Assembly (NCBI GenBank): GCA_903867855.1
Contig: CAIPTA010000181.1
Span: 12,038-76,037, forward strand
DNA from: Oligoflexia bacterium
GTDB taxonomy: Bacteria > Bdellovibrionota > UBA1018 > CAIPTA01
Direction of reading: 5' to 3'
DNA: 64,000 bases
A program made the position numbers and the translations under genes. How positions within the stretch are numbered: position 1 is the first letter of the stretch; the number at the start of each line of letters is the position of its first letter. Below are positions 1,576 to 60,066 of this stretch, one piece after another. A model generated the notes under the pieces. The model was not told the origin of the DNA. It saw only the letters and a program-made list of their open reading frames with translations, and did no database searches.

Positions 1576-1576
1576 A

Positions 1577-4676: not shown

Positions 4677-5642
4677 ATGATTAAAAATATCAGAATTTTG
4701 TTTTTGTTTCTTTTTTCGGTTCAAGCAGGTGCAACGAGCTATGTGGGAATTGGAACGGCGTCTCCGGCGTCATTACTCACGCTTTACACAACGACAAATA
4801 TTCAGGGGCTAGAGATTGATGGAACATCTACCGCAACTAATACGGTGAAAAGCCTTTTTCTTGCGAACGTTACTGCCGGATCTTATAATTCCATCACCCA
4901 AACCGGGGATCAAGGAATAATCTACATGGGGACGACGATAGGTACTCCCAAGGGTTTTTTCATCGCGCCTTGGGCTAGTGCCACCACAGGTCTTCGGCTC
5001 GATACTAATGGCAACGTCGGGATCGGCACGACCTCTACGTACGGAGCTCTAACTGTAGCTAATGGTACAGATCATACGCTTAATGTGCGTGGGGATCCCG
5101 TCTCATTCGGTCTGCCTGCTGGTCTTCTTGGGCCGATTCTTCAAGGCGTAAATAGCGCTCAAACTGTCCAAGAGCCGATCACCTTGGAGGGATCAACAAT
5201 TAACTTGATGGGTGGAAGTGTGGGTATAGGTACCAGTAGCCCCTCTTATGCTTTAGATGTAACAGGCACCATCAGAGCTACAAATCTAATTCTAACTTCT
5301 GATCGCAGAGCAAAGAAAAATATAAGTAGTTTAGATGAAACAGAATCGTTGGAAAAATTGAGCCGATTGAATCCAGTTTCCTTTGAATGGAAAAACTCTG
5401 GCGAGGCTGATCTTGGTATTATCGCGCAGGAGCTTGCGGAGGTTTATCCTGAACTAGTTTTGAAGGATCAACAGGGCGCGCTTTCAATTCGTTCCACTTC
5501 TCTCATTGCTCCGCTCATTGCCTCAGTGAAAAAATTAAAGAGCGACAATGAACTATTGCGAGAAGAAAACGGAAAACAGAAATCGCGCCTCGATGAGTTA
5601 GAGAAAAAATTTAACGCTCTAGCAGCAAAAATAGAAAAGTAA
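4677..5642 (+). CDS. secreted tail-fibre-like (mosaic adhesive trimer-like) protein with C-terminal peptidase S74 intramolecular-chaperone domain
   Basis: Signal peptide MIKNIRILFLFLFSVQAGA. Repeated VGIGT..P..L.V fibre motifs. C-terminal block SDRRAKKNISSLDE...LSRLNPVSFEWK...DLGIIAQELAEVYPELV...SLIAPLIASVKKLKSDNELLREEN matches the auto-cleaving chaperone of phage tail fibres and endosialidases. Confidence 0.8.
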   Translation: MIKNIRILFLFLFSVQAGATSYVGIGTASPASLLTLYTTTNIQGLEIDGTSTATNTVKSLFLANVTAGSYNSITQTGDQGIIYMGTTIGTPKGFFIAPWASATTGLRLDTNGNVGIGTTSTYGALTVANGTDHTLNVRGDPVSFGLPAGLLGPILQGVNSAQTVQEPITLEGSTINLMGGSVGIGTSSPSYALDVTGTIRATNLILTSDRRAKKNISSLDETESLEKLSRLNPVSFEWKNSGEADLGIIAQELAEVYPELVLKDQQGALSIRSTSLIAPLIASVKKLKSDNELLREENGKQKSRLDELEKKFNALAAKIEK

Positions 5643-6679: not shown

Positions 6680-7519
6680 TTACAATATTTTATGGATAGA
6701 TTTTACTGGCGCTAGCTTCCGCTTCAGCAGCGCAGGCACCGGGCAGAGAAGGATACTCATCCAAACCGCCACGCTAAAATAGAGCGACATCCAAAGAAAT
6801 TCATAGCCCCAATCTTTCACATCGTGAGTGACCATCCAGCGCGTGTTGAGATCTTTTATGCCATCCATAAAGCCTAGAAACTGCTTGCCGCTCGCAATAT
6901 CCGCCTGATGACGACTCATGTACATGGGCACATCTACAGTGGCCATATACATCACATACATCGCGCACCCAATGGCACCGAGGATGATCGCTCTACGAAA
7001 CCAGCCTTGAAAGTGTGAGCGAAGATCAAGAAGAGCCAACACGATCAAGAAATAGCTCACTCCCCACAATGATTCCTCCACGCAGTTGCCGATATAATTT
7101 GTGGTCACCACGGCATACCAAGAGCAAATTTCTGCCACACAGATAAGCGGCACAATCATGCGCGCAATTTTGCTCGTGAAATTTGCCTTACTCTCTTGAG
7201 CGAGAAAGGAAAGGAGCTCCGCCCATTCAGCCACGAAACAAAGTTCTGCGATTGTGGCTACAGAGCGGCCCACGAAAACGGAGGAGAGCCAAGTATCAAA
7301 GAGGCAAATGCGCTGCACATCTGCCCTCGGCAGAAGGGAGCGAAAGGCGCAGCCGAAAACATAGGCGCCAGAAAGGAGGAGGAGTTTTTTTGTGGTGGGA
7401 TCCTTTGGGAGGCTTAGGCGGGCCTTTGTCCAAGCGCTACAATTTAGTGCGCTCACACCTACTAGAAAGAGCCACCAAATGGCCACAGGGTTTGAGAGGG
7501 TAATCCAGGAGAGATTCAT
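6680..7519 (-). CDS. hypothetical polytopic membrane protein
   Basis: 279-aa ORF with multiple hydrophobic segments and no recognisable motif. It overlaps the downstream MNT gene start by 4 nt. Confidence 0.45.
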   Translation of the reverse strand: MNLSWITLSNPVAIWWLFLVGVSALNCSAWTKARLSLPKDPTTKKLLLLSGAYVFGCAFRSLLPRADVQRICLFDTWLSSVFVGRSVATIAELCFVAEWAELLSFLAQESKANFTSKIARMIVPLICVAEICSWYAVVTTNYIGNCVEESLWGVSYFLIVLALLDLRSHFQGWFRRAIILGAIGCAMYVMYMATVDVPMYMSRHQADIASGKQFLGFMDGIKDLNTRWMVTHDVKDWGYEFLWMSLYFSVAVWMSILLCPVPALLKRKLAPVKSIHKIL

Positions 7520-7788
7520 TTGGTGAGCCTATAGAAGCATTTACTAAAGAGCCGGATATGTTCGAGCAGTTCTTTGCTTTCAATTTGGGTATAGATCGAG
7601 AGGTCTATTTTATAGGGTAGGAGTAGATCATCTAGCGCGGATTCTATGGCCAAGAGTTCTGAATTTTTTCTAAAGTTAACTTTGGCTCTAGAACCGTAAA
7701 CCAGAACTTCTTCTACATTCGAAAATGCGCTAAAAACATCTTGAATGCTAGCAATGGTTTTTTCGCTGAGGCCAAACTCACTTTTCAT
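7516..7788 (-). CDS. MNT-type minimal nucleotidyltransferase (HI0073-like), catalytic motif degenerate
   Basis: ..LVYGSRAKVNFRKNSELLAIE.. aligns with the HI0073-type G-S-x(9-11)-D-x-D-L motif, but DLD reads EL: one codon shorter and only one acidic residue retained. Overlaps the HEPN partner by 4 nt. Confidence 0.55.
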   Translation of the reverse strand: MKSEFGLSEKTIASIQDVFSAFSNVEEVLVYGSRAKVNFRKNSELLAIESALDDLLLPYKIDLSIYTQIESKELLEHIRLFSKCFYRLTK

Positions 7789-8015
7789 GTATGTAAAAGG
7801 CTACTTAATTTTTGGGAAAGTTTTTCAAACTGGTCGAGATAGGATCCTACTACCTTTTGGATAATATCCTCTGCCGTTGGGCGATTATAGGTATGGGATG
7901 TTTGATTTCTGCTCTTGATCATTTCCATCCAGCAATCTCCGTCGCTCATTTGCTGAAGAGCTACTTTGAAGTTTTGGAAACGCTGCTGCCAGCGAATTTC
8001 TTGTCTCATGATCAC
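7785..8015 (-). CDS. HEPN / nucleotidyltransferase-substrate-binding (HI0074-like) protein, internally shortened
   Basis: N-terminus IRWQQRFQNFKVAL and C-terminal R-x4-H-x-Y HEPN motif (RNQTSHTY) are both present. At 76 aa the protein is far shorter than the family norm (about 120-140 aa), consistent with an in-frame internal deletion. Confidence 0.5.
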   Translation of the reverse strand: MIMRQEIRWQQRFQNFKVALQQMSDGDCWMEMIKSRNQTSHTYNRPTAEDIIQKVVGSYLDQFEKLSQKLSSLLHT

Positions 8016-13970: not shown

Positions 13971-16475
13971 GTGAGATTTTTCGCCTTTTATTTTGCTGCC
14001 TTTTTTCTAAGTCATTCCGTGGCGTTCGCCGTTGATCTAGGGCCATTATTTAAAAATTGCCAAGAGGCATGGTCTAAACTTAGCACTTCGCAATCTAAGG
14101 ATAGGCAAGCCTTGCTCGATAGGGTGAATCCGTCTACCGACACATTGGATCAACTGGATCGCTTAACTGCTGTAGAAGATATTTTAAAATGGGGCAAAAC
14201 CACGGATGACGAATTGGATTATCTGCGCCTCATTCGTCTCCGCGATTATGTAGATGCACCAAATTATATGGCCGGTGTGGAAATCTATGGCCAGGAAACC
14301 TATCTCGCTTGGCGTGATGCAGATGAATTTTTAAAGAGCATTCCGATTGGAAAATTTGAACCCACTATCGATGTGCTTTCAAAGAATCATCGCTTGGCCA
14401 CATCTGCCTTGTCGAAAACTCTGAAGCGTCTTGATAGTATCATCCCCGATGGTCTGCTGGCGGATAAGGGCGGAGTGATCAAGCGTAGAAGCTCGATCAA
14501 TATTGTGCCGATCTTGGACCCCTTGAAACATCCCTTCACAGATGAGCAGTATGCGGCCATCAAAGCAAACCAATGGCTTCAGGGATTTGTAGAGCTCCCC
14601 ATTCATCAGCCTGGTAAACATTTTGGATATATCTACTATTCGAAACCAGAGGATACACAGCCTGAGCTCGAGGCCTTAATTAAATGGTATGATCTCAATA
14701 AAAATAAAATGGATCCGGTGGAGCTCGCCGCAAAGTTTTCCTATCGTTATACTTCGATTCATCCTTTCATTGATGGGAATGGACGTTCTTCTCGGCTCAT
14801 CATGGATCGTATCCTCGCTGAATATGGATTACCTCCACCCTTATTAAAAGATTCGTGGGAAGATATTGTGCTCGGCGAAGATAAATATGTGCAAGAAGTG
14901 CGCGATGGGATTGATCGCTACTTAACCCTAGCAGAACAAAAAGCGCCAACTTATTATAATAATAAAAGTGGCAACTTAGTTACAACAGGGGTGTTAAAAC
15001 TGTCGGCCGCTAGCGATAGAGTGCTCGCACCACTCAGCGGAGAAACATTTAAGGTAGAAGGCAAAGAACTTTATTTCAGCACTACAGATGGATTTTTCTA
15101 TGATCATTTTGGTGTGCCGTATTTGGTGCACGAAAATCGATTTTATCCAGTGGCCGATCGTAGCTATCGTTTATATGAATTGAATGCTACGGCAAAAATA
15201 GATGGATATACTGCAGGGCTCAGCAAAGGCCATGCCCTACAGCTAAGAGAGAATTTGCGTTTTATCAAAAGCGTTGCGGATAAAAGCGCAGATTTAACGA
15301 CGTTCACGGTGGAGCCGTATTCTTCGATCGCAGCCGCGAATAAAATTGGAGATTTCCAGTTTTTCCCTTGGCAGAAAGATCTTTTTCAAAGCGCGGCCAC
15401 AATTACGGAAACAGATCCAACTAAAATTCTTTCCGTGTTTCGCTTTCAAAAAACCACTTTCGCTGCTGGCGCAAATCCAGAAACGATACTGGCTCAGTAT
15501 GAGTATGTAGATTACCTATATTGGCAAATGCAGCAAGCGGCCAAAAAATATTTTCCTGATCTTGAGGCTACCGTGATGGAGAGTCGTCAAAAGTTGCACC
15601 AAGCGGGAAGAGATTTGCTAGAGCCTTATCGTCAGGCCCGTAATGCACTTCCGTCTGAAGGTGCCCAGCGAGTAAGCAATAACTATCGAGTGAAGCTTTT
15701 CGATGCTTACTTGGAAAATTCTAAGCTCAGTTATAAGAGCTTCGATCGAGCCATGGACGCTATGCCAGACGATTCCATGGTGGTGATGCGTAGTGATATG
15801 CCGATCGTTTCCAAAATTGGCTTCACTTCTATTAGCGATTTTAGGAAGTTGTTCACCAGCCTGCCAAATTCCAAGAAGTTGGGGATTTTCCTCGAAAAAT
15901 TGCAAGCCTTCATGACGGGAGAAGGCAAGCGCCCCCTGCAGCAAGTTATTGCTGGAATTCACGAAAAAATTGAAAATAATGAAGGCCCTTTTAAGTTCTT
16001 GCCGCCATTTTTAGAGAAGATGTATTTTGATATTGAAAAAACCTATAACGATGGCGGTTACAACGCATTTCTAACTGCGCTAGCTAAAGTTCTAGAGAGT
16101 CCCTATGTTCATCGAGGTCTGGGCGACGAGTGGGAGCGTGCCTTCGTAGTGCAGCAATTACATGCTGGAGATGTGGGGAATAAATCTCTTAAATCTTTCA
16201 CAACGAACACAAATTTAATGAGTGGGGTGCCTTTTGTGGATATTCCTGCAAAGGGACAAATCTCCTTTGTGCGAATTCCAAAAACCAAGATCAAGCCTCA
16301 ACTGGGCTCTGATATGTTTACGAATGAATACGAAATATTGGCAACCGATATAGTTGGGCCGCAGAGAATTATTCAAAAGTTTTCTGGAGCGGAATTGGCG
16401 CAGCCAATTACTCCGGTAGAAGCTCTGCCGGATACAGATCCAAATAAACAATTTATGCAGCAGTATTTTAATTGA
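13971..16475 (+). CDS. large secreted Fic (Fido) domain protein
   Basis: Signal peptide ..FFAFYFAAFFLSHSVAFA. The canonical Fic active-site motif H-P-F-x-D-G-N-G-R-x-x-R (HPFIDGNGRSSR) is intact and embedded in an otherwise unrecognised 834-aa protein. No (S/T)xxxE(G/N) inhibitory motif was noticed by eye. Confidence 0.75.
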   Translation: MRFFAFYFAAFFLSHSVAFAVDLGPLFKNCQEAWSKLSTSQSKDRQALLDRVNPSTDTLDQLDRLTAVEDILKWGKTTDDELDYLRLIRLRDYVDAPNYMAGVEIYGQETYLAWRDADEFLKSIPIGKFEPTIDVLSKNHRLATSALSKTLKRLDSIIPDGLLADKGGVIKRRSSINIVPILDPLKHPFTDEQYAAIKANQWLQGFVELPIHQPGKHFGYIYYSKPEDTQPELEALIKWYDLNKNKMDPVELAAKFSYRYTSIHPFIDGNGRSSRLIMDRILAEYGLPPPLLKDSWEDIVLGEDKYVQEVRDGIDRYLTLAEQKAPTYYNNKSGNLVTTGVLKLSAASDRVLAPLSGETFKVEGKELYFSTTDGFFYDHFGVPYLVHENRFYPVADRSYRLYELNATAKIDGYTAGLSKGHALQLRENLRFIKSVADKSADLTTFTVEPYSSIAAANKIGDFQFFPWQKDLFQSAATITETDPTKILSVFRFQKTTFAAGANPETILAQYEYVDYLYWQMQQAAKKYFPDLEATVMESRQKLHQAGRDLLEPYRQARNALPSEGAQRVSNNYRVKLFDAYLENSKLSYKSFDRAMDAMPDDSMVVMRSDMPIVSKIGFTSISDFRKLFTSLPNSKKLGIFLEKLQAFMTGEGKRPLQQVIAGIHEKIENNEGPFKFLPPFLEKMYFDIEKTYNDGGYNAFLTALAKVLESPYVHRGLGDEWERAFVVQQLHAGDVGNKSLKSFTTNTNLMSGVPFVDIPAKGQISFVRIPKTKIKPQLGSDMFTNEYEILATDIVGPQRIIQKFSGAELAQPITPVEALPDTDPNKQFMQQYFN

Positions 16476-18156
16476 TTGCTGGAAGCAGTGTGCTTAAGGA
16501 ACCCAGATCGTTTCTAAGTTGAATACCGATTCCGGCACCGAGGCCAGCGCAGGAATTAGTAACACTTTTTTTAATCGCAAATGTATTTTTGCAGTATTGA
16601 TTTTTTACGTCCGGAGCGGAAGGTTCCGCATCGGAGCAGAAAATAGAATTAAATATGGATAGACCAGAAGTCACATCTCCCAAAGGGTTCACTATATCTA
16701 TTACTTGGCCGCCAGCCAGGGCAAGGCCACCCTCATAGATCCCAATTCCGCCAATCGCGGCCACTAACTGATGAGGCAATTCCGTATCACTTGTGGAAAT
16801 CACGCCTTTTCCAAAAAATAGACCCGAAACTAAGTCCGCACCAAAGTCGATAGGGGCATTAATGGTGGAATCGATGATCGTGCCCACATAGCCAATATCA
16901 GAAGCAAAATAAGCGGCACCACGAAAAATCGGAGTAAAGAAATTTTCCTGTGGAGCTGGTGGTGGCGGTGAAATTTTTTTCTGGGGCAAGGGGTGAATTG
17001 TGTCTACCACTATTTTCGCTACGGCCTTAGCCTGGCCTGGCTGGAATTTTTCTTCGAGCATTTGAAAACTGCCTTGGTATCGCATTAGTAGTGCTTCGAT
17101 AAAGAGTACGTCATCCTCTCCCAGCGCACGATAAGATTTCGCGGCTCTTTCCATGGCTCCGGGTATATCTGAATAATGGTCTGATTCGCGCAATTCGAGA
17201 ATAGTATTCCAGACTAATTGATCTGCTTTTTCTTGCCCGAGTTGGTCTCTTATTTTCCAAAGGAATGATGGCAAAAAACTTTCCCATTTCGTTTCTGTTG
17301 GCGTGGAATTTGTGACTTCAACTATTTTACTGAAATCCAGTTCGTAGCTTTCGCCCGCGAATTCCTTAAGGCCAAGAAAAGAATTTTTTTCATTTATCGA
17401 GCTAGCCAGGTAGCTGCCCAGATTCAAGGAGATTGGTTTTTTTTCTGGATCGGGGAGTAGTCCGGGAGAATCTACGGCTGCATAGAATGCTTCCAAGTAA
17501 ATTAGGTCGGGCAGCTTGGCTGCGTCCATCCCAAAGTTAAAGTGGGCGAGGGTTTTGGCTGGTTCGAGTATTCCTAGAGTTACCCAGTCGTGTTCATAAA
17601 CTGCCTGGCCTTCATTCTCTGCGGTATCATACCAGTTTATATCTTCTAATCCTTGCTTGCGGCTATGAAACCAAATTTCTTCATTCCAGGAGCCATTTCT
17701 AGGAATATAGCGAGCGCTATTAAATTCCGCTTTTTCGGAAAAATGTTTTTGGGCATCGAATGCTTTATTCAAATCAAGCCGAACCAAAATTTTTCGATCT
17801 AGTGCTGAGTCTGGGCGTATTTGCGTGGCTAGTTTCAAAAAATATTCATGGGCCTTGGTGAGGTGGTAGAGCACATTGTTCGCATCAAAGGAGCGTTTTT
17901 TTATTGCGTCTTCACTGTCGGCACTTACTAATTTGAAGAAAGAATTTTCTGCCGCGTTGGAGCTATTTATTTGGAGTGCGCTTTTACAGCTTTCTTCTTC
18001 CAGCGAAGTTATTTTATAGCCTTGGTCGCTATCGATTTTTTCACTTGTAATAATAGCGCATTTATCTACGCTAGCCTCGATGGCGTTTTGGAGCTTCGCT
18101 ACCGCAGGCTGCGTGCAGAATAAGCTAAGGATTAGATAGAGCCATGGGCGATGCAT
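16468..18156 (-). CDS. secreted hypothetical protein with Gly-rich C-terminal region
   Basis: Signal peptide MHRPWLYLILSLFCTQPAVA and 562 aa. Convergent with the Fic gene, with which it overlaps by 8 nt. No known motif. Confidence 0.45.
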   Translation of the reverse strand: MHRPWLYLILSLFCTQPAVAKLQNAIEASVDKCAIITSEKIDSDQGYKITSLEEESCKSALQINSSNAAENSFFKLVSADSEDAIKKRSFDANNVLYHLTKAHEYFLKLATQIRPDSALDRKILVRLDLNKAFDAQKHFSEKAEFNSARYIPRNGSWNEEIWFHSRKQGLEDINWYDTAENEGQAVYEHDWVTLGILEPAKTLAHFNFGMDAAKLPDLIYLEAFYAAVDSPGLLPDPEKKPISLNLGSYLASSINEKNSFLGLKEFAGESYELDFSKIVEVTNSTPTETKWESFLPSFLWKIRDQLGQEKADQLVWNTILELRESDHYSDIPGAMERAAKSYRALGEDDVLFIEALLMRYQGSFQMLEEKFQPGQAKAVAKIVVDTIHPLPQKKISPPPPAPQENFFTPIFRGAAYFASDIGYVGTIIDSTINAPIDFGADLVSGLFFGKGVISTSDTELPHQLVAAIGGIGIYEGGLALAGGQVIDIVNPLGDVTSGLSIFNSIFCSDAEPSAPDVKNQYCKNTFAIKKSVTNSCAGLGAGIGIQLRNDLGSLSTLLPAIN

Positions 18157-18276: not shown

Positions 18277-20598
18277 CTACTGTGCCTTTGTTGTTTTGGA
18301 TATGATCGGACTCGTTTGACTATTCCCCAGCGAATCCGTGGCTACTACTTGGAAGTAGTAGGTGCTGTTAGCACTCAATCCATTCACGGTTACTACTTGC
18401 GTGTCGCTCGCAGTGCTTACTTGCACTGTTTGGAGAGACAAGCTTGTAGGGCTCGTTCCAACGGAGACTACTGCGGTAGAAAGTGCTCCGGGTGTTCGCC
18501 AGATGAGAGTGGCTGAGGTGGCTGTTGTTGTGCCATCGAAGCCAAGTATGGTCCATCCAGGAGTGGGATTGGTTCCTGTGCCCGTGCCAGTTCCTGTGCT
18601 GGTTGAAGTTGCTGTGGCAGTTTGAGTTGCTGTAGCAGTTTGAGTTGCCGTAGCAGTTTGCGTGGCTGTGGCCGTCGCGGTATCAGTCGCGGTCACGGTT
18701 TGTGTTGCTGTGGCTGTATCAGTAGCGCTTGCTGTCTGAGTCGCTGTAGCAGTCGCAGTTTGCGTTGCAGTAGCTGTCTGTGTAGCAGTCGCGGTCGCGG
18801 TTTGTGTTGCTGTGGCTGTATCAGTAGCGCTTGCTGTTTGAGTCGCTGTAGCAGTTTGCGTTACTGTGGCTGTCTGAGTCGCAGAAGCAGTTTGGGTAGC
18901 AGTAGCCGTCTGCGTAGCAGTTGCCGTTTGCGTTGCCGTAGCTGTCTGTGTGGCAGTCGCAGTTTGAGTTACTGTAGCTGTCTGTGTGGCAGTCGCAGTA
19001 GCAGTTGAAGTTACTGTTGCTGGTAAAGTGTCCACGTCGATCACTAGGCTATTTTTTTGCGTGCCAACTTGGTCACTTGCCGTAACCATGAAATAGTATT
19101 TGGATCCAGAGGCAAGATTCGAAACTGTGAGAGTGTGATTGGTGGCAAAGCTGGTTTCGTCGATTTCATTTGGAAAATTCACACCATCGATTCCCCATTT
19201 CAACTTGCCTTTGGTGGCAGCTTCTGGAGTTTGCCATACTAAGCTCACGCTGTTGAGTGCACCTTGTCCGGAGAATCCAACGATGTTCCAAACAACAGGG
19301 GCATTTGGTTGGCAATAGGTGATTGCGATTTTACTTGCGGCGCTCCCGGCATTCGCCAAGTGAACTATATCCGTGAGCGCAGTATAAGAATAAGGCTCGG
19401 TGCTTTGATCCACTTTTGCAGAGATGGAATTTGGATCGATCCAATTAGCGGGCCAAGAAAGCTTAAAGTCGTGGTTGATATTTACGCTATCAGAAATAGA
19501 GCTACCGATCTGTGCGAGACCCTTTGTATAGTCATCTTCAAAATTAAATAGCACGCCGCCAGTTTTCTGCACCATTTCGAAATATCCGTAGCCAAGGGAG
19601 GGATAGATGCAAGCAGCCTTCATGCTATTGTGAATGGCAAGATCCGCTTTTGTTACGTGAACGATGGCGTGGGTGGTTACAGGCATATCGCCTTTTAGGG
19701 CTTTTACAGCGGCAAATGTGGTATCGGTATTAATGCCAGTTTTATCATAGTAGTTCTTTTTTACATTCGATTCATAGGCCACATCGCAGCGAACAGGCAT
19801 GCCGAGCGCGTGCATCTCTGCATCGCTTGGGAAATAGGAGCCGATCTCGTTTTCGTCGCTCATAAATAAAATAGATAGAGCTGCATCAGGACGAAAAAAA
19901 CCTTTCGCTTGGTTTTCTTTCGCGTTTTTTGTAACTGCATAATAGAGGCTATAGAAGAGGGCCTCGCCGCTACCGTCATAATCGACGATCTTCATGCCGG
20001 ATTGAAAAATTTGCTGTAGGTCTTTTGCAATTTGCTGTGAGTTAAGTTTTTTATTGCTCAAGACATACGGAATATCTTTGGATGGTGAGTAGAGCACGCC
20101 GCGATGTGCGGAGTTTGCTTGGCCGAGCAGCACAGCATAGTTGATGTCTGAATCAGAGGGAAGCTCGCGCACCATGCTCTCAATATTGCTGGCAATGCGC
20201 TGCCAATTGGTTTCCATGCTACCCGAAGTATCCATCACAAAAAGAATATCTAGCTTGCGCGTGCAAGTGGCCGCATTTTGCTCAAAGTGATCCGTATTAC
20301 ATGTTGTGGGTGGCGAAGTGGGCTGCGGAGGATTTACGATCACCACGGGAGGCGATGGGGGCACTACAACGGGGGTGGGTATGTGTTCGATGGCCTTACA
20401 TTCCGCCACGATATTGGGATATTTTTTGAGGAGCTCGGCGCTGATTTTTCCTTTTTCATAGGCATCTTCCAGGCGATCACAGATCTCCCGATTGGGGTGA
20501 ACGGCGCAAGCGGCAAGAAGGCCTGATATAAGGAAAAATCCAGTAAATTTAATAAGATACCGGATTATTGTAGTGCTATTTGAATTTGTGCTACCCAT
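18277..20598 (-). CDS. lipoprotein with von Willebrand factor A domain, (TATATQ)n linker and fibronectin-III-like domains
   Basis: Lipobox ..ISGLLAAC. VWA MIDAS motif LDILFVMDTSGSME. About 140 aa of T-A-T-A-T-Q hexapeptide repeats. Flanking beta-rich segments (..LTVSNLASGSKYYFMV..; ..TVNGLSANSTYYFQVVATD..) are typical of FN3. Confidence 0.7.
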   Translation of the reverse strand: MGSTNSNSTTIIRYLIKFTGFFLISGLLAACAVHPNREICDRLEDAYEKGKISAELLKKYPNIVAECKAIEHIPTPVVVPPSPPVVIVNPPQPTSPPTTCNTDHFEQNAATCTRKLDILFVMDTSGSMETNWQRIASNIESMVRELPSDSDINYAVLLGQANSAHRGVLYSPSKDIPYVLSNKKLNSQQIAKDLQQIFQSGMKIVDYDGSGEALFYSLYYAVTKNAKENQAKGFFRPDAALSILFMSDENEIGSYFPSDAEMHALGMPVRCDVAYESNVKKNYYDKTGINTDTTFAAVKALKGDMPVTTHAIVHVTKADLAIHNSMKAACIYPSLGYGYFEMVQKTGGVLFNFEDDYTKGLAQIGSSISDSVNINHDFKLSWPANWIDPNSISAKVDQSTEPYSYTALTDIVHLANAGSAASKIAITYCQPNAPVVWNIVGFSGQGALNSVSLVWQTPEAATKGKLKWGIDGVNFPNEIDETSFATNHTLTVSNLASGSKYYFMVTASDQVGTQKNSLVIDVDTLPATVTSTATATATQTATVTQTATATQTATATQTATATQTATATQTASATQTATVTQTATATQTASATDTATATQTATATATQTATATQTATATATQTASATDTATATQTVTATDTATATATQTATATQTATATQTATATSTSTGTGTGTGTNPTPGWTILGFDGTTTATSATLIWRTPGALSTAVVSVGTSPTSLSLQTVQVSTASDTQVVTVNGLSANSTYYFQVVATDSLGNSQTSPIISKTTKAQ
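18575..19022. repeat. tandem 18-bp coding repeat (about 23 units) encoding (TATATQ)n in the VWA lipoprotein
   Basis: Near-identical 18-nt units (gcagtttgagttgctgta-like) run across about 450 bp. The opposite-strand Cys/Ser-rich ORFs (18622..19008 etc.) are artefacts of this repeat. Confidence 0.8.
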
Positions 20599-20842
20599 AT
20601 AAGCCGCTTTCTTAATAAAGTTTATATTTCTTAATATTTAGGATAAGCGAAAAACACGGAAGCGTCAAATGCTCCGGGCTTAATGATGTAAGTATTTGTT
20701 TTTATTTAATTTAAATTAGCTCTCCTTGGATTCTAAAGAGTTCATTTTAGGAGTTTGGCGGGGCTAAGACGAATAAAGAGCTTTCCATGTATGACGCTAT
20801 GCACTATAAGTGCCGAAACAAACATTTCGAAGGAGTTCTCTT

Positions 20843-21214
20843 ATGAAATACCTACTTATTCTATTGGCAACCATGGGCTTGAGCCACGTGGCTTTCGCTG
20901 AAGACTATCGCTGCGATCAGCCTGTGAGCAAAGATGGCGAACGCATTCAAGGTGGCCCAAGCTACGACGTTACGAGCGATGCGGATAATGGCGTGTTTCT
21001 CGTAATCAACCAAGGCGTGGTGCATGGCCCAAGCGTAGCCCCAACAGAACTGAAGATGAAGCATGTTGGACATTCCATCGATGGCCCGGAAATTTACCAC
21101 GCTGGAAATGTGACGGTTACATTTAATAATTTTTATTTAGGCGGCGTAGTGCGCACTAGCGTTACTCTTGACCTGAAACAAGGCGGCAGAGTCTTCGAAG
21201 CGGCTTGTAAATAA
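20843..21214 (+). CDS. small secreted hypothetical protein
   Basis: ATG at 20843 gives the signal peptide MKYLLILLATMGLSHVAFA. An AT-rich promoter region and GGAG RBS lie upstream. Confidence 0.4.
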   Translation: MKYLLILLATMGLSHVAFAEDYRCDQPVSKDGERIQGGPSYDVTSDADNGVFLVINQGVVHGPSVAPTELKMKHVGHSIDGPEIYHAGNVTVTFNNFYLGGVVRTSVTLDLKQGGRVFEAACK

Positions 21215-21275: not shown

Positions 21276-24221
21276 TTAAAGAAGAAGGCTGCGAATATCG
21301 TCTTTGGTGAGTTCTGCGGTATCGCCTGAGCCACTGAGGAGGGAACCCGCCAGCGCGCGTTTCTTCTTCTGCAATTGCAGGATTCGATCTTCCACTGTAT
21401 TGCGAGCCACTAGGCGGTGAATGAACACAGGATTCAGCTGTCCAATTCGGTGAGCGCGATCCGCTGCCTGATCCTCTGTGGCTGGGTTCCACCAAGGATC
21501 GAGAATGAATACGTGATCGGCCGCCGTAAGGGTAATTCCCACGCCGCCAGCCTTCAGCGAGATCAGCATCACCGGCGGACCATCATCTTTTTGGAAGGTG
21601 GAAACAATCGTCTCGCGATTTTTGCTGCTACCATCTAAGCGAATGAATTTGATACCTAGGGCGTTGAGGCGCGGCTCCACGAGATCAAGGAGAGATGTCC
21701 ACTGCGAGAATACGAGAGCCTTGTGATTATGGGAAAGCGATTCCTGTAAAATCTCCATAAACAATTCTAGTTTTGCAGAGCCGAAGTTCGCATCTAAGCC
21801 ACTGCCGGGCACCATACTGCCATGACAGCAGCTCTGTCGAAGGCGGAGTAGCATTTCAAGTGCGGCCATCACGGATCCAGAATCTAATTTTTCCAGCACT
21901 TCTTTGCGAGAGGCCGCGAGCACGCCATTGTAGAGAGATTGCTCTTGCTCATTGAGATCACAGTGGAGCACGATTTCTGTTCGCGCTGGTAATTCTGGCG
22001 CCACATCTTTTTTCAGGCGTCGTAAGATAAAGGGACGGATCTTCGTGCGGAGGCGCTCCAAGCGCCGCTCACTGCCACTGCGGATGGCTTCCCCATAGAG
22101 ACGATTAAATTCTTCACGGGTGCCTAGTAGGCCAGGATTCAGGAAATGGAACTGACTCCAAAGATCATCCAGATTATTTTCAATAGGTGTGCCGGAAAGT
22201 GCAATGCGGAAATTACCGCGCAGGCGGTGTGCGGCTTTCGCAATTTGGCTATCGGGATTTTTGATTGTCTGTGCTTCATCGAGAATCACAGTGTCCCAGG
22301 GCATCTCGCAGAGTTTATCCTGCTCGATACGGTATACACCATAACTCGTTAACACCACATCTGCATCGATGGTGCGGGAGGCGCCATGGTAAATGGTATA
22401 TTTGAGTCCAGGTCGGAAATCAGAAATTTGATCGGCCCAGGATTGCAGCACGCTGGTAGGGCAGATCACTAGCGTTTTCCCATCAAGGCAGGCGATAGAT
22501 TGAAGCGTTTTCCCAAGACCCATATCATCGGCGAGCAAAGCACCCATGCCGAGTTTGCGCAAAAAACAGAGCCAATCTACACCGCGCTTTTGGTAGAGAC
22601 GAAGATCCGCTTTCAAATCTTTTGGCAGGGGCACATGGGGTATACGCTCCAGCTTCATAAGACTATCGCGCAAGTCTTTCAATTTTTCAGAGATAGCTTG
22701 GCCGCTGTCTTCGCAGAGGCTGGCCGCTTCAGGAAGTAAATAGTTAGGAAGTTTTTCTGTGGCTTTTCTCGCATTGAGCAGTGCCTCAGCGCGATCCGCA
22801 TATTTTAAGAGCCAGTCTTGCGGTAGGGATCCCCAGCCACCGTTGGCGAGTGGCACGAAGCTGCGATTATTTTTCCAAGCAGCTAGCACATCCACAGAGT
22901 TGGCGGAGGCACGTCCACCGTTGGCGGTGAAGCCGAGATTAAACTCTCCTTCGCCCACTTCCATATTGGGAATGAGCTCACCTTCCACGCGAAAGGAGTT
23001 GAGGCCATTGCCGGTAGTTTCCCAGCTATTTAATTTCGACACAAAGAGTAGAGCAGATTCGCCCTCGTAATGACTCTGGCGACCCACCTGCAATTGCAAT
23101 TCACTGTGGAGGCGCTTTACGAGACGCTCTTCTTCCACGAGATCACGCTCAGGAATTTCCATACTCTCCACGATCATTTCCGAACCACGCACTTCCGCGA
23201 TCGGTGGATTTCCATAAAACATCTGTGGATACACAGAGAGCCGATCTTGGGTTTCCGCTTGGAGGTGCAAAACCAAGCGAGGCGGAAATTTTTTGAGGCG
23301 CGGGGCTTTTTGCGTTTCGATGCGCACTACCATTTTCGCCTCAAGGCCAGGGAGAATGGTTGAGGCGAAACGCTGGATATCTTTGGCGGGGATATGGCCA
23401 AAGGCTTCACGCTCTTTGGTGCTGAAGGCAGGCTCGCGCACGGCCTTGAGCGTATTTCCGCAGAGTACGGCGCCATTTTTGAAAGCGTAGCCAACGTTGG
23501 AATCGTTTACGAGCTCAAACTTGAAGCCACCCTTATCATCGATGAGTCTGGCCTGCGGGCTCACTGTTTGCGCAGAAATCTCTACCGGCTTTTCTTCGAA
23601 AGTGACTGCAGGGTGACCCTTAATGGCAGCGAGCAAACGGGTGAGGGTATAGCGATCGAGTGGATTGGAATGAGAGCCGCCGAGCACATGATCGATGGCA
23701 TAGTCTTCTTTCGTGGCGATGGGGGCTTGGCCCGTGATCCGTCCTGATTGAATGCCGCCAATATAGGCGACTAAACTCTGGTTGAGTTTCACCTCTTTCG
23801 TGCCGCTCACAAGATAGCGATCAAAATTTAAATAGCCGCTCTGGCGATAGAAGCGATAGTCGATGCGCGGCGGGCCTGAAGGCGCAGCGGTGGTGGCCTT
23901 CTTACTCGTTTTGGTTTTGCCCACTAAGGCTTCTTGCTTGGTGAGGCCATTTTTGAAGGCCGTAGCGGCAGCCACAGCGTGCACACAGGGGTCGTTACGA
24001 TCGCCACAGTCGCAGTGCCAATCCATTTCCGTGGGCCAGAGAGTAACTTTAGGGCTCACAGCTTGATTCGGACGGTTAATCTTTAGTAAAATTTCTTCCG
24101 GGCTACGCGAACTTTCAAAAACAATTCCATCTTTCGCCAGGGCGATACCCTTTGTCCACACATTGGGGAGCGCCGCTTCTTGTAGGGCTGCGTAGAGTTG
24201 TTGAATGTTGATAGGGTCCAT
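21276..24221 (-). CDS. SNF2-family helicase with N-terminal SWIM zinc finger
   Basis: SWIM motif WHCDCGDRNDPCVHAVAAA. SNF2 N-domain with DDMGLGKTLQSIA, DEAQTIKNP and a helicase-C block (..LISLKAGGVGITLTAADHVFILDPWWNPATEDQAADRAHRIGQ). Confidence 0.85.
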   Translation of the reverse strand: MDPINIQQLYAALQEAALPNVWTKGIALAKDGIVFESSRSPEEILLKINRPNQAVSPKVTLWPTEMDWHCDCGDRNDPCVHAVAAATAFKNGLTKQEALVGKTKTSKKATTAAPSGPPRIDYRFYRQSGYLNFDRYLVSGTKEVKLNQSLVAYIGGIQSGRITGQAPIATKEDYAIDHVLGGSHSNPLDRYTLTRLLAAIKGHPAVTFEEKPVEISAQTVSPQARLIDDKGGFKFELVNDSNVGYAFKNGAVLCGNTLKAVREPAFSTKEREAFGHIPAKDIQRFASTILPGLEAKMVVRIETQKAPRLKKFPPRLVLHLQAETQDRLSVYPQMFYGNPPIAEVRGSEMIVESMEIPERDLVEEERLVKRLHSELQLQVGRQSHYEGESALLFVSKLNSWETTGNGLNSFRVEGELIPNMEVGEGEFNLGFTANGGRASANSVDVLAAWKNNRSFVPLANGGWGSLPQDWLLKYADRAEALLNARKATEKLPNYLLPEAASLCEDSGQAISEKLKDLRDSLMKLERIPHVPLPKDLKADLRLYQKRGVDWLCFLRKLGMGALLADDMGLGKTLQSIACLDGKTLVICPTSVLQSWADQISDFRPGLKYTIYHGASRTIDADVVLTSYGVYRIEQDKLCEMPWDTVILDEAQTIKNPDSQIAKAAHRLRGNFRIALSGTPIENNLDDLWSQFHFLNPGLLGTREEFNRLYGEAIRSGSERRLERLRTKIRPFILRRLKKDVAPELPARTEIVLHCDLNEQEQSLYNGVLAASRKEVLEKLDSGSVMAALEMLLRLRQSCCHGSMVPGSGLDANFGSAKLELFMEILQESLSHNHKALVFSQWTSLLDLVEPRLNALGIKFIRLDGSSKNRETIVSTFQKDDGPPVMLISLKAGGVGITLTAADHVFILDPWWNPATEDQAADRAHRIGQLNPVFIHRLVARNTVEDRILQLQKKKRALAGSLLSGSGDTAELTKDDIRSLLL

Positions 24222-24752: not shown

Positions 24753-25298
24753 TTGTGGTATCAAGAATTTATGAAACAGGGTGATTTTTTTCCTATCCAA
24801 CAAAAAGCCTATGGTGGTGAGCTACTGAAAACTCGTCGTGGTCGCATGCATGGGCGCACTCTTTCTACGAAACATTCAATGCACCTTGTGCTCCGCTCTA
24901 CTCGGGCTAAAGGGGCGCTTTCTTTTTTAAGACATCGGATCACAATTGATCGTATTTTGACTAAATTTGCGGCAAAAAATGGAGTAAGGATTTTGTCTCT
25001 GGCCAACGTAGGGAATCACCTGCACCTGGAGATACGGCTCTCTACGCGGCATACTTATCGCGCCTTCATTCGAGCGATCACGGCGGCTATCGCCATGGCG
25101 GTGCAAGGGAAGAATCGCTGGAATAAGATTCAAGAGAAATTTTGGGACTATCGCCCCTTTACCCGCATCGTAGTGGGCTATCGAGCGCTGCTCTCGTTAA
25201 AAGACTATATCGAGATCAATCAGCTAGAGGGACTTGGCGTAGCACGGTCGAAGTCTCGTCTAGCTTTGGGCTGGCGAGTAGTGAGACCGCCAGGGTGA
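24753..25298 (+). mobile_element. RAYT / IS200-like HUH (Y1) tyrosine-transposase gene, apparently solitary
   Basis: HUH motif NHLHLEIRL and a C-terminal KFWDYRPF...DYIEINQL block matching the RFWE...DYIYINP catalytic-Tyr helix of REP-associated tyrosine transposases. A 530-bp non-coding region lies upstream. Confidence 0.55.
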
Positions 25299-30601: not shown

Positions 30602-33448
30602 TTAGTTGGCTTTTTTGAAGCCGTTTGTGAAGTCATTGGAGTTATTGATGCCTTTGTCGGAAGTGGCAGATTCGTCTTGCTTAGACATTGCATCGGGCAC
30701 CGCTCCTTTTGCGTCAGTTATTTTTTTATGCATTACCTCGCACGCACATTTCTTCGTAGTTGGAGGGGCTCCAAGATCACAGGTTGCATCGGCGTCGGTA
30801 TAGGCAGAGCTCGAAGTCGCCGCGGGGGTAGTCATTGCACAAGCTTGCATTAAATTGGAGTACGCATCAAGAATACTTCCATTGCCATTTGCGAGTTCGG
30901 GTGTGCGTTCTTTAAAGTTAAATGTACTTGGAACTTCTGCAACGCAACCAGCGTTAACTTGTGCTTGGCATGCTAATTTACCAGCAGCGCCTCCACTTTT
31001 TTTCTTACAACCGTCTAAGGATTCGACGGCAGCAGAATAGGCCTTTACGGTTGAGTCATTGCTATTTGCGTTCATTGCAGCTTGAGCAATGTTTTTTTGA
31101 GCAGCCTCATCTGAACAATCATCGGAATTACCAGAGCAGGCGCTATTCGCTTGGCTTCTGCAGTCGGCAAGATCCGATTTTACCTCATTTGCACTGTCGG
31201 AACTATCTGAGCCACTATCGCTGGGTTTGGATCCGTTTTCTTGTCCATTCCGCATCATCCCACTTAGTAGTGTTATGAATCGTTTTTCTGAATTAGGGCT
31301 GCATAAATTTGCATAAGGCGCTCTGCAGTTGTTGCTTCCCAAAACTTTATCTAAATCGTCATAGTCTGATTTGATTAGGCTGCAATATCCAGTCATCGCC
31401 ATAGCCTCATTTTTTTTGTCCAAAACTTTATTTTTCAAATCAGTAGTGGCCTTCGCGTTTGCAGTGACGGATTCTGGATCCATATCGCTAACGCCGAGGA
31501 GGCCCTTCGCATCTGGCATTGGATCAGAGGAGAAGAGATTATTTCTATCTTTATCTTTCGTGAGGCTCGCGGGGTCTGCCTTTTTCATCGTAATACCAGC
31601 AGTGGCAGGTACGCCGAGAGCCGCTAGAGAGGAGCTAAGGTCAGCCACGGCGGAAGTAACTTTTCCAGCAGCGATAGCGAAAGAAGCCGATGCGGCTCCG
31701 ATCACATTAGTAATCTGAGCATTTGTAGCTTTTGCAAAACTAACTAATTTTTGTTTGTAAGCGCTTGATTGGGAGACATCGTAATCCTCTCGCTGCTGCA
31801 TCAGGGTGATACAAGCTTCAAAGCCAACGCATGTTTGCTGATCGGGCACTGTGGTTGGGCTGCCATTTGTATCCAGGGTTAGGTGCTGAAGTGTAATCGT
31901 GGTTGGGCTTGGATTAGCGGTCCAGGTGCCGCCAGTGCTGAGCTGAGCATACGCAGTTGTGCCGTTGATTCCACTTTCTAACTGCGCTTTAAGTTCTCGT
32001 AAACAATCGAGGCCTGCAGTCGGATCTGTGGTGGCGCTGCAGTTCGCTGCAAACTGGGAAAGACCGGTACTATAGCTTTTCGAGAATCGCGTGAGGAATC
32101 GGTTCATTGCTTTCGTCACTGTATTTGTGGCTTGGGTCTCGATAGATAAAATTTTCTTTTTAGCTGAGTCTACTTGATAGTAGCCAGCATAGTACTTTGG
32201 TCCCTGTGAGTTCATGTCTTGATCAAAATTGTTCATGGCCCTTTTAAAACAAGTCTTCATCGAACTTTGGTAGAAGTTTTTTAGAGTATCAGGGCTCACG
32301 GAACTTCCATTCAAGGCAAGTGAATCAAAAGTTGAGCTTAAATTGGTGAGTGCTTGTGCAAGCTGATTATTTACATACTGTTTAAAAGCTTTAGGGTCCA
32401 AAGCATTTAAATTTCCTGCACTAATGGAGTTCTGCAGGATATCTTGCTGCTGCTGAATTAAGCTGCTGATGTTTGCCGAGTTGCCGTTATTGAGCTCACC
32501 CTGCACCTGATTGGCGCCAAACGATTGGTTGGTAGCAGAGGCCAAACACGCAAGGGGAGACATCAAGCTTGTGCCATTGGGGCCGTTAATTCTGCAGGGC
32601 ATATTGCTATCGCCCACAAAGCATCCATTGATAGCATCACTGAGAATGCCTTTCATCCAATCATTTGCGGTTTTATTGCTGCTTATTTTGAGGTTGTCCA
32701 CCTGCCCCGCGAGATCTCCCGCAAAGCCTTGGCCACCAATGCTTACATCGCTGGCCCCTTGCGCTCCAGAGGAGCTAGGACTGATTAGGGATTGAACTTG
32801 GTTGATCATCGCATCAACTGCTTGGAGTTGATTGTTGAGGCCATTATCTCCTTCAAGATCATCCTTTATCTTTTTCGCCATATCGTCATAGTTCGTTACG
32901 ATGGATTGCTGGCTATCGTAAGCACCGTTGGCGGCTTCAATATAGGCTTTTAGCTGATCCTTGAATTGACCAGTAGCGATGGCATCCATCGCGGTTTGCA
33001 TATTCTTAATACAAAGAAAGCGATCGTTAGCGGCAGAAAACTGATCGAGCCAGGTAAGAGCATCTCCCCAAACAGTGTTGTAGGTCGAACATGTAACCTT
33101 CTCGCCAAGAATCGCGTTGGGGGGAAGTGCTGCTCCGCTTGCTGACCGTTTTCCTTTTTTTGCATTCGTTTCACACTGCGCTTCCGTAGCCATCGCCTGA
33201 GCAATAGCTGCGTTAGCTTGGCCAAGTTGAGTCCCTACGGTTCCCATTTTCGCGGTGGCGCCTACGAAGCTCGCCATATTCTGCGCTTGGTTTACGCCGT
33301 TAATTACCGTGGTGAGGCCGAGAGCTGCGCCACTAATTGCGCCAGCAGCTCCGGAGGCGGCATCAGTGCTTGCATCTCCCAACGCTGTGGAGCTGGCGAT
33401 CGATAGCAAAAGTATAGAGCAGGTGATGAGTTTTAAATCGGTGCGCAT
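30602..33448 (-). CDS. giant secreted Cys-containing A/S/N/Q-rich protein of unknown function
   Basis: Start at the ATG at 33448, with a GGAGG RBS. Signal peptide MRTDLKLITCSILLLSIASSTALG. About 950 aa with low-complexity composition and numerous paired Cys. Confidence 0.5.
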   Translation of the reverse strand: MRTDLKLITCSILLLSIASSTALGDASTDAASGAAGAISGAALGLTTVINGVNQAQNMASFVGATAKMGTVGTQLGQANAAIAQAMATEAQCETNAKKGKRSASGAALPPNAILGEKVTCSTYNTVWGDALTWLDQFSAANDRFLCIKNMQTAMDAIATGQFKDQLKAYIEAANGAYDSQQSIVTNYDDMAKKIKDDLEGDNGLNNQLQAVDAMINQVQSLISPSSSGAQGASDVSIGGQGFAGDLAGQVDNLKISSNKTANDWMKGILSDAINGCFVGDSNMPCRINGPNGTSLMSPLACLASATNQSFGANQVQGELNNGNSANISSLIQQQQDILQNSISAGNLNALDPKAFKQYVNNQLAQALTNLSSTFDSLALNGSSVSPDTLKNFYQSSMKTCFKRAMNNFDQDMNSQGPKYYAGYYQVDSAKKKILSIETQATNTVTKAMNRFLTRFSKSYSTGLSQFAANCSATTDPTAGLDCLRELKAQLESGINGTTAYAQLSTGGTWTANPSPTTITLQHLTLDTNGSPTTVPDQQTCVGFEACITLMQQREDYDVSQSSAYKQKLVSFAKATNAQITNVIGAASASFAIAAGKVTSAVADLSSSLAALGVPATAGITMKKADPASLTKDKDRNNLFSSDPMPDAKGLLGVSDMDPESVTANAKATTDLKNKVLDKKNEAMAMTGYCSLIKSDYDDLDKVLGSNNCRAPYANLCSPNSEKRFITLLSGMMRNGQENGSKPSDSGSDSSDSANEVKSDLADCRSQANSACSGNSDDCSDEAAQKNIAQAAMNANSNDSTVKAYSAAVESLDGCKKKSGGAAGKLACQAQVNAGCVAEVPSTFNFKERTPELANGNGSILDAYSNLMQACAMTTPAATSSSAYTDADATCDLGAPPTTKKCACEVMHKKITDAKGAVPDAMSKQDESATSDKGINNSNDFTNGFKKAN

Positions 33449-33563
33449 AGAGCCTCCAAAGCGAATCCCCATCTAACTGATCGGACTTTTCTAGAAAAGT
33501 CTTTACCGTAGGAAAATACTTTGGATATTGTTTAAGGATTTTACAGTGTCTAAAAGTTCGACA

Positions 33564-37254: not shown

Positions 37255-37442
37255 TGGCAACAACAGCATTTTGCTCCACTGATAAGGCAATTTTTTCTAG
37301 CCTTTAGTATAGCAATCTGCTTCCTATAAAACAACGCAAGAAAGCCGCAGAAACGCTCAGCTATTGGTTTAGGGGTACTTGTTAAAAGGTATTTATTTAT
37401 AGCCAAAAACACTACGTGTTTAGGTTTTTGACAGCTGAAAAA

Positions 37443-59866: not shown

Positions 59867-60066
59867 GTGTATTTGTCCCTCGCTAAAATTTGTATCCCGC
59901 CAATAATTTAGGTGCAACAAAGGAGAGGCAATTTTTTGAGAAAACTATGAAATAAATACGCGATATGACGTTTTGCGTTATATCGTTTTATGTAAACATA
60001 TATTAGTTATAATTGACGGTTCATCCTTTTCTGGCAAGGATCTTTGCAGAAAGAGGGAATAAATTC

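Follow-up and report, generated by a model that had tools for sequence, protein, structure and literature searches.

A codon-scrambled, threonine-alternating spacer as a probable stalk substitute in an adhesin-like lipoprotein of an Oligoflexia bacterium

Introduction

Serine-rich repeat (SRR) adhesins such as GspB, Fap1 and SraP carry a long stalk of dipeptides, each pairing a hydroxy residue with a variable one, with a higher-order periodicity, and the register of this stalk serves glycosylation. The hydroxy residue is serine, the stalk runs to hundreds to thousands of residues, and these proteins have an LPXTG wall anchor, an accessory SecA2/Y2 system and dedicated Gtf enzymes. Proline/threonine (PT) and other Thr-rich linkers, including the PT boxes of cellulases and the O-mannosylated Thr clusters of mycobacterial lipoproteins, are extended, low-complexity tracts placed between domains. 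A 2024 study of Bdellovibrio bacteriovorus HD100 described lipobox proteins with a metal-ion-dependent adhesion site (MIDAS), Bd0875 and Bd1483, in which the MIDAS fold is inserted in a small domain that is rich in beta structure and built by the N terminus and the C terminus, and such proteins are surface-located adhesins of prey invasion (PMC11003981). Here, a gene with features of each of these systems is analysed (18277..20598, minus strand), located on a stretch of 64,000 nucleotides (nt) of DNA from an Oligoflexia bacterium (contig CAIPTA010000181.1, positions 12,038 to 76,037), hereafter the window. The Thr/Ala/Gln spacer that it encodes is probably a stable, disordered or extended substitute for a stalk in an adhesin-like lipoprotein, and not a contingency locus. 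What is new is a Thr-alternating, Gln-punctuated, codon-scrambled spacer that appears to replace an FN3 stalk in an uncharacterised lipoprotein family of predatory bacteria.

The protein shares with Bd0875 and Bd1483 the phylum, the lipobox, a DxSxS motif with conserved acidic residues and a MIDAS domain inserted in a beta-rich domain. Unlike them (head-only as described), it adds a first FN3 domain (FN3-1), a 153-aa spacer and a terminal FN3. This likeness to Bd0875 (Q6MMY6) and Bd1483 (Q6MPH9) was judged by published description, not by sequence, and on that footing they appear to be the closest characterised bacterial analogues of the head. As in SRR adhesins, a stalk of alternating hydroxy and other residues (68 of 68 positions) separates functional domains, but the hydroxy residue is Thr and the tract has only 153 aa. 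The anchor differs too, being an N-terminal lipobox, and no LPXTG motif, accessory Sec or Gtf families were found among the 38 open reading frames (ORFs) of the window; the protein is not a member of the SRR family. The spacer resembles PT linkers in being Thr-rich, extended and inter-domain, and some family members (P0037, P0038, P0042 and L014) use PT spacers at that position, but it departs from them in its single Pro, its strict two-residue alternation and its Gln/Asp punctuation every 6 or 8 residues. With tandem-repeat contingency loci it has in common an in-frame tandem repeat and past duplication; its DNA units, in contrast, are not near-identical, and no length polymorphism was seen within the one clone available.

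Gene and domain architecture

The minus-strand ORF 18277..20598, with its stop codon at 18277..18279, encodes 773 aa, and a 773-aa product is also given at the same place by gene callers on three public contigs. From N to C terminus the protein consists of a signal peptide with lipobox, a tether, a head, FN3-1, the Thr/Ala/Gln spacer and the terminal FN3:

20506..20598, minus strand: signal peptide and lipobox, residues 1-31, with R13/K17 in the n-region, a hydrophobic core and L-A-A-C31, as read from the sequence
20302..20505, minus strand: anchor-to-head tether, residues 32-99, with short helices at 37-68 carrying Cys40 and Cys67, then Pro-rich PTPVVVPPSPPVVIVNPPQPTSPPTT (AlphaFold2 model, AF2, and low-complexity scan)
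19306..20301, minus strand: head, residues 100-431, a VWA/MIDAS domain (about 115-373) inserted in a beta-sandwich
19030..19290, minus strand: FN3-1, residues 437-523 (family FN3 hidden Markov model, HMM, E 1.4e-28; Pfam fn3; AF2 predicted local distance difference test, pLDDT, about 90, beta strands 440-523)
18571..19029, minus strand: Thr/Ala/Gln spacer, residues 524-676, 153 aa, 20 hexa- or octapeptide units and a degenerate TSTSTGTGTGTGT tail
18280..18555, minus strand: terminal FN3, residues 682-773 (family HMM E 1.6e-28; Pfam fn3, best stretch 691-767; AF2 pLDDT about 90)

The N terminus reads as a substrate of signal peptidase II: the h-region runs into the lipobox as FTGFFLISGLL-A-A-C31, and LLAAC, with a positively charged n-region and a hydrophobic h-region before it, fits the pattern [LVI][ASTVI][GAS]C. 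Cys31 is invariant in the family alignment A2, and a lipobox Cys is present in most homologues. Residues 76-97 of the tether have pLDDT below 50 in the full-length AF2 model. Both FN3 domains are supported by sequence (Pfam fn3, 38.4 bits against a cutoff of 25, in two stretches; family FN3 model at residues 437-528 and 682-773) and by beta-sandwich models, and the second forms the C terminus of the protein, which ends in SKTTKAQ. A scan for promoters and terminators around the gene gave nothing above shuffled expectation.

An earlier description, made from the letters alone and called here the sequence-only reading, had proposed a lipoprotein with VWA and FN3 domains, and this is borne out by the lipobox at Cys31, a PF00092 match of 27.8 bits with the head alone and the two FN3 domains. 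It had also supposed that changes in the spacer would alter the reach of the VWA domain from the lipobox. The domain order speaks otherwise, as the head comes first, followed by FN3-1, the spacer and the terminal FN3, and it is residues 32-99 that separate head from anchor.

Scrambled codons and block duplications in the spacer DNA

The spacer had been read as a perfect (TATATQ)n repeat encoded by about 23 near-identical 18-nt units at 18575..19022. A Thr-rich, hexapeptide-periodic linker is indeed found close to that place (residues 524-676, 18571..19029), but only 10 of its 20 units are exact, and its DNA is far less regular than was claimed. Tandem Repeats Finder (TRF) reports 63% matches at period 18, and sixteen in-register 18-nt units have a mean pairwise identity of 0.71, with identity in 2 of 120 pairs. 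The spacer peptide was recoded with random synonymous codons (n=1000); the observed period-18 self-identity is 0.662 and that of the recodings 0.659-0.670. Identity between units at four-fold sites is 0.305, compared with 0.313 expected from independent draws. The peptide therefore accounts in full for the 18-nt periodicity of the DNA, which is no stronger than random synonymous codons would give. By TRF, pairwise identity, resampling and four-fold sites alike, the array lacks the near-identical tandem DNA units of a contingency locus.

Exact repeats of at least 20 nt occur only twice in the whole array, one of 40 nt (spacing 102) and one of 26 nt (spacing 36). About 17 nt is expected for the longest, and none of the 1000 synonymous resamplings reaches 40 nt. 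The two repeats lie in larger features:

18653..18754 and 18755..18856, minus strand: two tandem 102-nt (34-aa) blocks, 91/102 identical (TRF period 102, 90% matches), containing the copies of the 40-nt exact repeat at 18696 and 18798
18833..18999, minus strand: older 36-nt (12-aa) higher-order periodicity (TRF 4.6 copies, 80% identity), with the 26-nt exact repeat at 18938 and 18974

The long exact matches were left by block duplications, of 36 nt and then of 102 nt. All repeat units are multiples of 3 nt, so that on/off switching by frameshift is impossible. Slipped-strand mispairing on the 18-mer, which had been put forward as a source of length variation, is without substrate, because the units are not near-identical and the 40-nt and 26-nt repeats are the only exact ones of that size. 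Rare recombination between the two 102-nt blocks is possible and is the sole remaining route to a change in length.

Two plus-strand ORFs across the repeat, 18622..19008 (128 aa, rich in Cys, Ser, Arg and Leu) and 18362..18625, were rejected as genes and are mirror artefacts of its codon structure.

Copy number was compared between assemblies. Base for base, two further assemblies (L052 and L053), retrieved via a look-up of neighbouring genes, carry the same gene as the window, and 773 aa are called in a fourth record too; the array was resolved identically by a k=141 short-read assembly. The identical number of repeats agrees with an absence of variation, but the flanks of L052 and L053 differ from the window by 0-1 mismatch in 15-21 kb, which marks all of them as one clone and makes the comparison a weak test of polymorphism. 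For a comparison of strains, an exact protein look-up gave no match, and single-protein scans of genome and metagenome collections returned no close relative, with alignment-based scans reaching at most 54% and 53% identity. Among more distant relatives, P0028 and L056 are 84% identical outside the spacer and have (T-x)n spacers of 71 and 51 aa, respectively. The spacer DNA of L056 is scrambled too, its longest exact repeat being 11 nt compared with 13.6 nt expected from recoding. Spacer length thus appears to drift between lineages without repetitive DNA, and the presence of fewer exact repeats than under random recoding suggests that DNA repetitiveness may be avoided in such linkers.

These data bear directly on the proposal of a contingency locus, in which the copy number of the array would change often by slippage or recombination and yield adhesin length variants. 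The array did grow by duplication, as the 102-nt blocks, their exact 40-nt core and the 36-nt periodicity attest, its long exact repeats exceed those of every synonymous resampling, and the pair of lineages just described differs in spacer length. Set against this are units that are on average 71% identical, with two identical pairs, a period-18 signal no stronger than that of random recoding and saturated four-fold sites, repeat units that all preserve the frame, the identity of the gene in the window, L052 and L053 together with the 773 aa of the fourth record, and the even less repetitive spacer of L056. A contingency locus is therefore judged highly improbable.

Selection on the spacer peptide and its predicted disorder

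At the peptide level, the spacer contains 10 exact TATATQ units, three TATATATQ octapeptides and seven variants (TATVTQ twice, TASATD twice, TASATQ, TVTATD and a long first unit), and its ends are degenerate. Its composition is dominated by T73, A44 and Q17, followed by S6, V4, G4 and D3, with one Pro in 153 residues, and Gln or Asp punctuates it every 6 or 8 residues. As to whether the repeat occurs elsewhere, the degenerate coding pattern of TATATQ is found 14 times, always inside the array (18622..18999) and nowhere else in the window, where 0.01 occurrences are expected. The hexapeptide-periodic repeat is real and far beyond chance, but imperfect.

The alternation is strict. In the core (residues 531-666, 136 aa), hydroxy residues occupy 68 of 68 alternate positions (65 Thr and 3 Ser), and the other register holds 43 Ala, 17 Gln, 3 Val, 3 Asp and 2 Ser. 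Compared between units, the first two codon positions show 91% identity; synonymous sites are random. In a neutral simulation, in which a perfect array decayed to the same synonymous level, Thr remained in register at 23% of positions (maximum 40%) and no exact TATATQ unit was left, compared with 10 of 20 observed. Since all 68 hydroxyls and half of the units persist despite randomised synonymous sites, the Thr/Ser register is held by purifying selection. Gene conversion is not its cause, because conversion would also homogenise the synonymous sites. With its register kept by selection while the DNA drifted to full synonymous randomisation, the array would be genetically stable.

In the full-length AF2 model, residues 529-679 have a pLDDT of 23-30 and no secondary structure, and the flanking FN3 domains reach about 90. 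This prediction matters for a second alternative, in which the tract would fold into a two-faced beta structure with a Thr face and an Ala face (a beta-solenoid or cross-beta zipper) and act as a rigid rod or a surface for self-association, resembling ice-binding TxT arrays. Antifreeze and ice-nucleation proteins are known to carry such arrays on beta-solenoids, and a strict two-residue alternation with punctuation every 6 or 8 residues under selection is what a regular beta structure requires. The tract, however, has neither bulky hydrophobic residues for a core nor Gly, Asn or Pro at turn positions, and the equivalent spacers of relatives are either acidic (T-D/E/N)n or rich in Pro, from which this fold would not form. 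Together with the AF2 result, this leaves a folded beta structure very unlikely.

Stalk variation in the family

Homologues come almost only from metagenome-assembled genomes (MAGs) of Bdellovibrionota (Bacteriovoracia, Oligoflexia, Bdellovibrionales), often with two paralogues per genome, and the best is 50-54% identical to the protein. Head-only relatives of about 400-530 aa with a lipobox Cys are found in Bdellovibrio and Pseudobdellovibrionaceae genomes, those of Bdellovibrio spp. at 28-31% identity. The family is an uncharacterised one of lipoproteins with an integrin-beta-like MIDAS head, a stalk of 0-8 FN3 modules or a low-complexity spacer, and a conserved terminal FN3. No paralogue of the gene was found in the window. 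In several of the Bdellovibrionota MAGs the family is represented by two paralogues that differ in their number of FN3 domains, such as 6 and 8 (L007/L011, L003/L008, L004/L010, L001/L012), which suggests that a single genome can encode a range of stalk lengths.

In most relatives the stalk is made of 3 to 8 tandem FN3 modules with very short junctions. Among 49 complete family members, non-FN3 spacers longer than 30 aa are present in 7 of the 12 with at most two FN3 and in none of the 37 with at least four (Fisher p=9e-6, phylogenetic non-independence ignored). Members with at least four FN3 have a total of only 15-26 non-FN3 residues between head and terminal FN3, and the 153-160 of the protein studied here are the extreme of the set. 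Other spacers at the same position are of the Pro/Thr type (P0037, P0038, P0042 and L014, the last with an independent Pro/Thr/Ser spacer of 129 aa and a single FN3) or of the acidic (T-x)n type (P0028 and L056). Tracts of at least six (T-x) pairs are shared by 13 other family sequences and are placed at either of two linkers; in 12 of the 13 they lie in the anchor-to-head tether, where eleven long homologues carry such a tract instead. None was found in non-family ORFs among about 1000 ORFs of the fetched Bdellovibrionota loci. A database search with the spacer alone retrieved nothing but weak matches to generic linkers rich in T, A and P, and it gave no second TATATQ array.

The terminal FN3 is far more conserved than the FN3 modules of the stalk and is kept even when all of these are lost. 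Its invariant residues are W682, G686, D688, T691, I699-W700 and T702, with a tail I766-S767-K768-x-T770-K771, a conservation that points to a probable binding or sorting role of its own.

The reading that we favour is the following. The protein would be a lipid-anchored envelope protein, probably exposed on the outer-membrane surface by analogy, with an integrin-beta-like head and complete MIDAS near the lipid anchor and a stalk leading on to the conserved terminal FN3. This stalk would consist of one FN3 and the 153-residue, predicted-disordered spacer, which would replace the missing FN3 modules and act as a flexible or extended tether setting the separation of head and FN3-1 from the terminal FN3. 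The array would have grown by the occasional 36-nt and later 102-nt duplications, not by slippage of an 18-nt unit, and its length would change between lineages, not as a rapid switch. By polymer scaling, a coil of 153 residues would extend over about 9-10 nm, and a stiffened chain over several times this distance. In our best reading, this range brackets the approximately four FN3 modules that are missing relative to the commonest relatives.

Several observations weigh against this reading. We infer surface exposure, adhesin function and the stalk-substitute role, the first two by analogy to Bd0875, compared by description only. The contrast in stalk type is categorical and treats related members as independent; no monotonic trade-off of spacer length against FN3 number is supported, as their rank correlation is not significant (Spearman rho -0.19, p 0.18), and the categorical contrast alone holds. 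Several members with two FN3 have merely 14-17 spacer residues, and stalk length is clearly not conserved in the family. Low AlphaFold confidence over a region without alignment depth does not prove disorder. Finally, the strong selection on the register means that the tract does more than span distance, and the favoured explanation does not say what.

The MIDAS head

Scanned in isolation, the head matches the Pfam VWA family PF00092 with 27.8 bits (gathering threshold 23.8, E 3.4e-6), and VWA is matched by 29 of 42 family members at E<=0.01. A scan of the full-length protein against Pfam and NCBIfam missed the domain, the NCBIfam matches being low-complexity noise, and the provisional statement that no VWA is detectable by sequence was overturned by the head-only scan. 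Low-complexity spacers can thus mask domain calls, since VWA is lost when the 153-aa tract is included and passes the threshold when the head is scanned alone.

The AF2 model of the head (pLDDT 92.6, predicted template modelling score 0.87) begins with strand 100-106, followed by the alpha/beta core of the VWA domain (115-373) and then by six strands (377-429), an order consistent with a beta-sandwich that is formed by the flanking segments and interrupted by the VWA domain. In agreement with a Rossmann-like alpha/beta VWA fold, Foldseek aligned the model with integrin beta headpieces (betaI and hybrid domains; probability 1.00, E about 1e-9) and also with the pneumococcal pilus adhesin RrgA. 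The integrin beta headpiece is the best structural match, with about 370 aligned columns, a D-x-S-x-S plus Glu plus Asp MIDAS and a VWA domain inserted in a beta-sandwich. Identity to it is only 10-14% and the TM-score 0.29-0.49, and unlike integrin beta, the protein has no alpha-subunit partner and no PSI or EGF domains, and is a lipoprotein with an FN3 stalk. A phmmer search of PDB gave weak matches, the best being the VWA domains of anthrax toxin receptor 2 and MIC2 over the MIDAS segment.

The head carries DILFVMDTSGSM, and its MIDAS is complete (D123-T-S125-G-S127, E212, D248) and invariant in 13-42 family members. Cys100, Cys271, Cys330 and Cys429 are invariant as well. The head-only relatives from Bdellovibrio genomes retain the MIDAS residues, apart from L030, in which Gln stands at the first Asp position. 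The metal-site head is probably the functional core of the protein and sits close to the N-terminal lipid anchor.

Location in the envelope

Under the sorting rule of E. coli, a lipoprotein with Ala at position +2 ends up by default in the outer membrane, on its inner leaflet. The +2 residue of the protein is Ala, not Asp, and by this rule it would belong to the outer membrane. The same residue is consistent with a third alternative, a strut across the periplasm, in which the protein would face inwards from the outer membrane and its stalk would bridge to peptidoglycan or the inner membrane via the terminal FN3. The conservation of that domain independently of the stalk would suit such a strut. 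The invariant Cys pairs are consistent with oxidising conditions, which prevail at the surface and in the periplasm alike. A stalk that varies by 0-8 extra FN3, and that differs between paralogues of one genome, is nevertheless hard to reconcile with a periplasm of fixed width, and the analogous lipobox MIDAS protein Bd0875 is surface-exposed (PMC11003981). We give very little credence to the strut and prefer a location at the cell surface.

Possible O-glycosylation of the stalk

The strict hydroxyl register calls for an additional function, for which dense O-glycosylation is the most attractive candidate, if a tentative one. In a mucin-like stalk, most of the hydroxyls would be O-glycosylated in the periplasm, which would stiffen, extend and shield the spacer from proteases, and the enzyme might be the TMTC/PMT-like protein encoded at 1577..2905. 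This proposal, which we regard as possible but unlikely, refines the stalk-substitute explanation and does not exclude it. Two systems offer precedents: in mycobacteria, the GT-C enzyme PMT adds O-linked mannose to Thr-rich tracts of lipoproteins, and in Gram-positive bacteria, SRR adhesins bear dense glycans along their Ser-x dipeptide stalks. The 68 alternate Thr/Ser under purifying selection are compatible with such a modification, as is the restriction of the (T-x)n module to the family, with 13 other sequences at two linker positions and no non-family ORF of about 1000. On the other hand, no glycosyltransferase or Wzy_C/PglL Pfam family was found among the 38 ORFs of the window, and across 51 loci the genes beside family members show no conservation.

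The sequence-only reading had named 1577..2905 as a GT-C-like enzyme. It is a minus-strand ORF for a polytopic membrane protein of 442 aa, and residues 17-146 align (E 2e-9) with tetratricopeptide repeat (TPR) proteins, some of which bear PMT_2 (PF13231) and one of which is named protein O-mannosyl-transferase; the aligned part includes the DD motif of the first loop (residues 34-35). The GT-C-like assignment is tentative, with support at the level of a motif. The ORF has no Pfam match even at E<=1, is without the TPR domain of its relatives and lies 15 kb away, and nothing links it to the lipoprotein. A 100%-identical copy of its protein (P0045) is found on 3 public contigs. It is located between two ORFs with pilin-type N-terminal methylation signals, 862..1575 and 2902..3564 (region 862..3564, minus strand), and this region could be a cassette for pilin or pseudopilin modification; the two flanking pilin-like genes are likelier clients of the enzyme.

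The Bacteroidota O-glycosylation sequon D-[ST]-[AILVMT] occurs three times in the spacer, but that system is phylum-specific and corresponding genes were not seen. Nothing relevant to O-glycosylation in Bdellovibrionota was found in the literature searched. It is doubtful, though conceivable, that the stalk is a densely O-glycosylated, mucin-like product of an undescribed Bdellovibrionota system, possibly using the protein of 1577..2905, with (T-x)n as the standard glycosylated tether of MIDAS lipoprotein adhesins in this clade. Such a stalk, if real, would be a glycoprotein of the mucin type with no earlier report from predatory bacteria.

Genomic neighbourhood

No window neighbour within 8-32 kb has a homologue in any of 51 family loci, and a conserved operon partner was accordingly not found. 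The surroundings of the gene, and other ORFs of the window, are as follows:

16468..18156, minus strand: signal-peptide protein of 562 aa with no Pfam family, 120 nt downstream of the gene and perhaps co-transcribed with it; no homologue at the 51 family loci
20810..21214: small secreted protein of no family, between helicase and the lipoprotein gene
21276..24221, minus strand: SWIM and SNF2 helicase of 981 aa, directly upstream
24753..25298, plus strand: IS200-like Y1 transposase adjoining the helicase
13971..16475, plus strand: Fic-domain protein of 834 aa
4677..5642, plus strand: 321 aa, Peptidase_S74 'chaperone of endosialidase' domain (E 2e-16), then a C-terminal coiled coil and a short TSTATNTV tract
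7516..8009, minus strand (20148..20641 in L052): two small adjacent genes with NTase_sub_bind and faint Polbeta nucleotidyltransferase matches
30602..33472 (956 aa), 35860..37290 (476 aa), 37443..38573 (376 aa) and 57434..59920 (828 aa), minus strand: no Pfam match at E<=1e-4, forming with their neighbour a series of large, uncharacterised proteins
33564..35870: 768-aa neighbour of these ORFs, with only EF-hand matched

In the 68.9-kb contig of ERZ1426819 (ENA and NCBI), the Fic-domain protein is given a length of only 557 aa, with an unrelated 87-aa gene after it, and L052 and L053 agree with the window; the difference is either a structural variant or an assembly join. The protein of 4677..5642 resembles a trimeric fibre protein of the tail-fibre kind and may be a further surface adhesin, and the pair at 7516..8009 looks, from its domain matches, like a toxin-antitoxin system of the HepT/MNT type.

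Significance

A repeat can be conspicuous in the peptide without being mutable in the DNA. In the spacer described here, codons are scrambled and the peptide register is conserved, a combination that is the signature of a selected, stable linker. The register of 68 hydroxyls in 68 positions leads to a concrete hypothesis of O-glycosylation in a phylum for which no protein glycosylation is described in the literature searched. If the family acts in prey contact, the type and length of the stalk would be natural variables.

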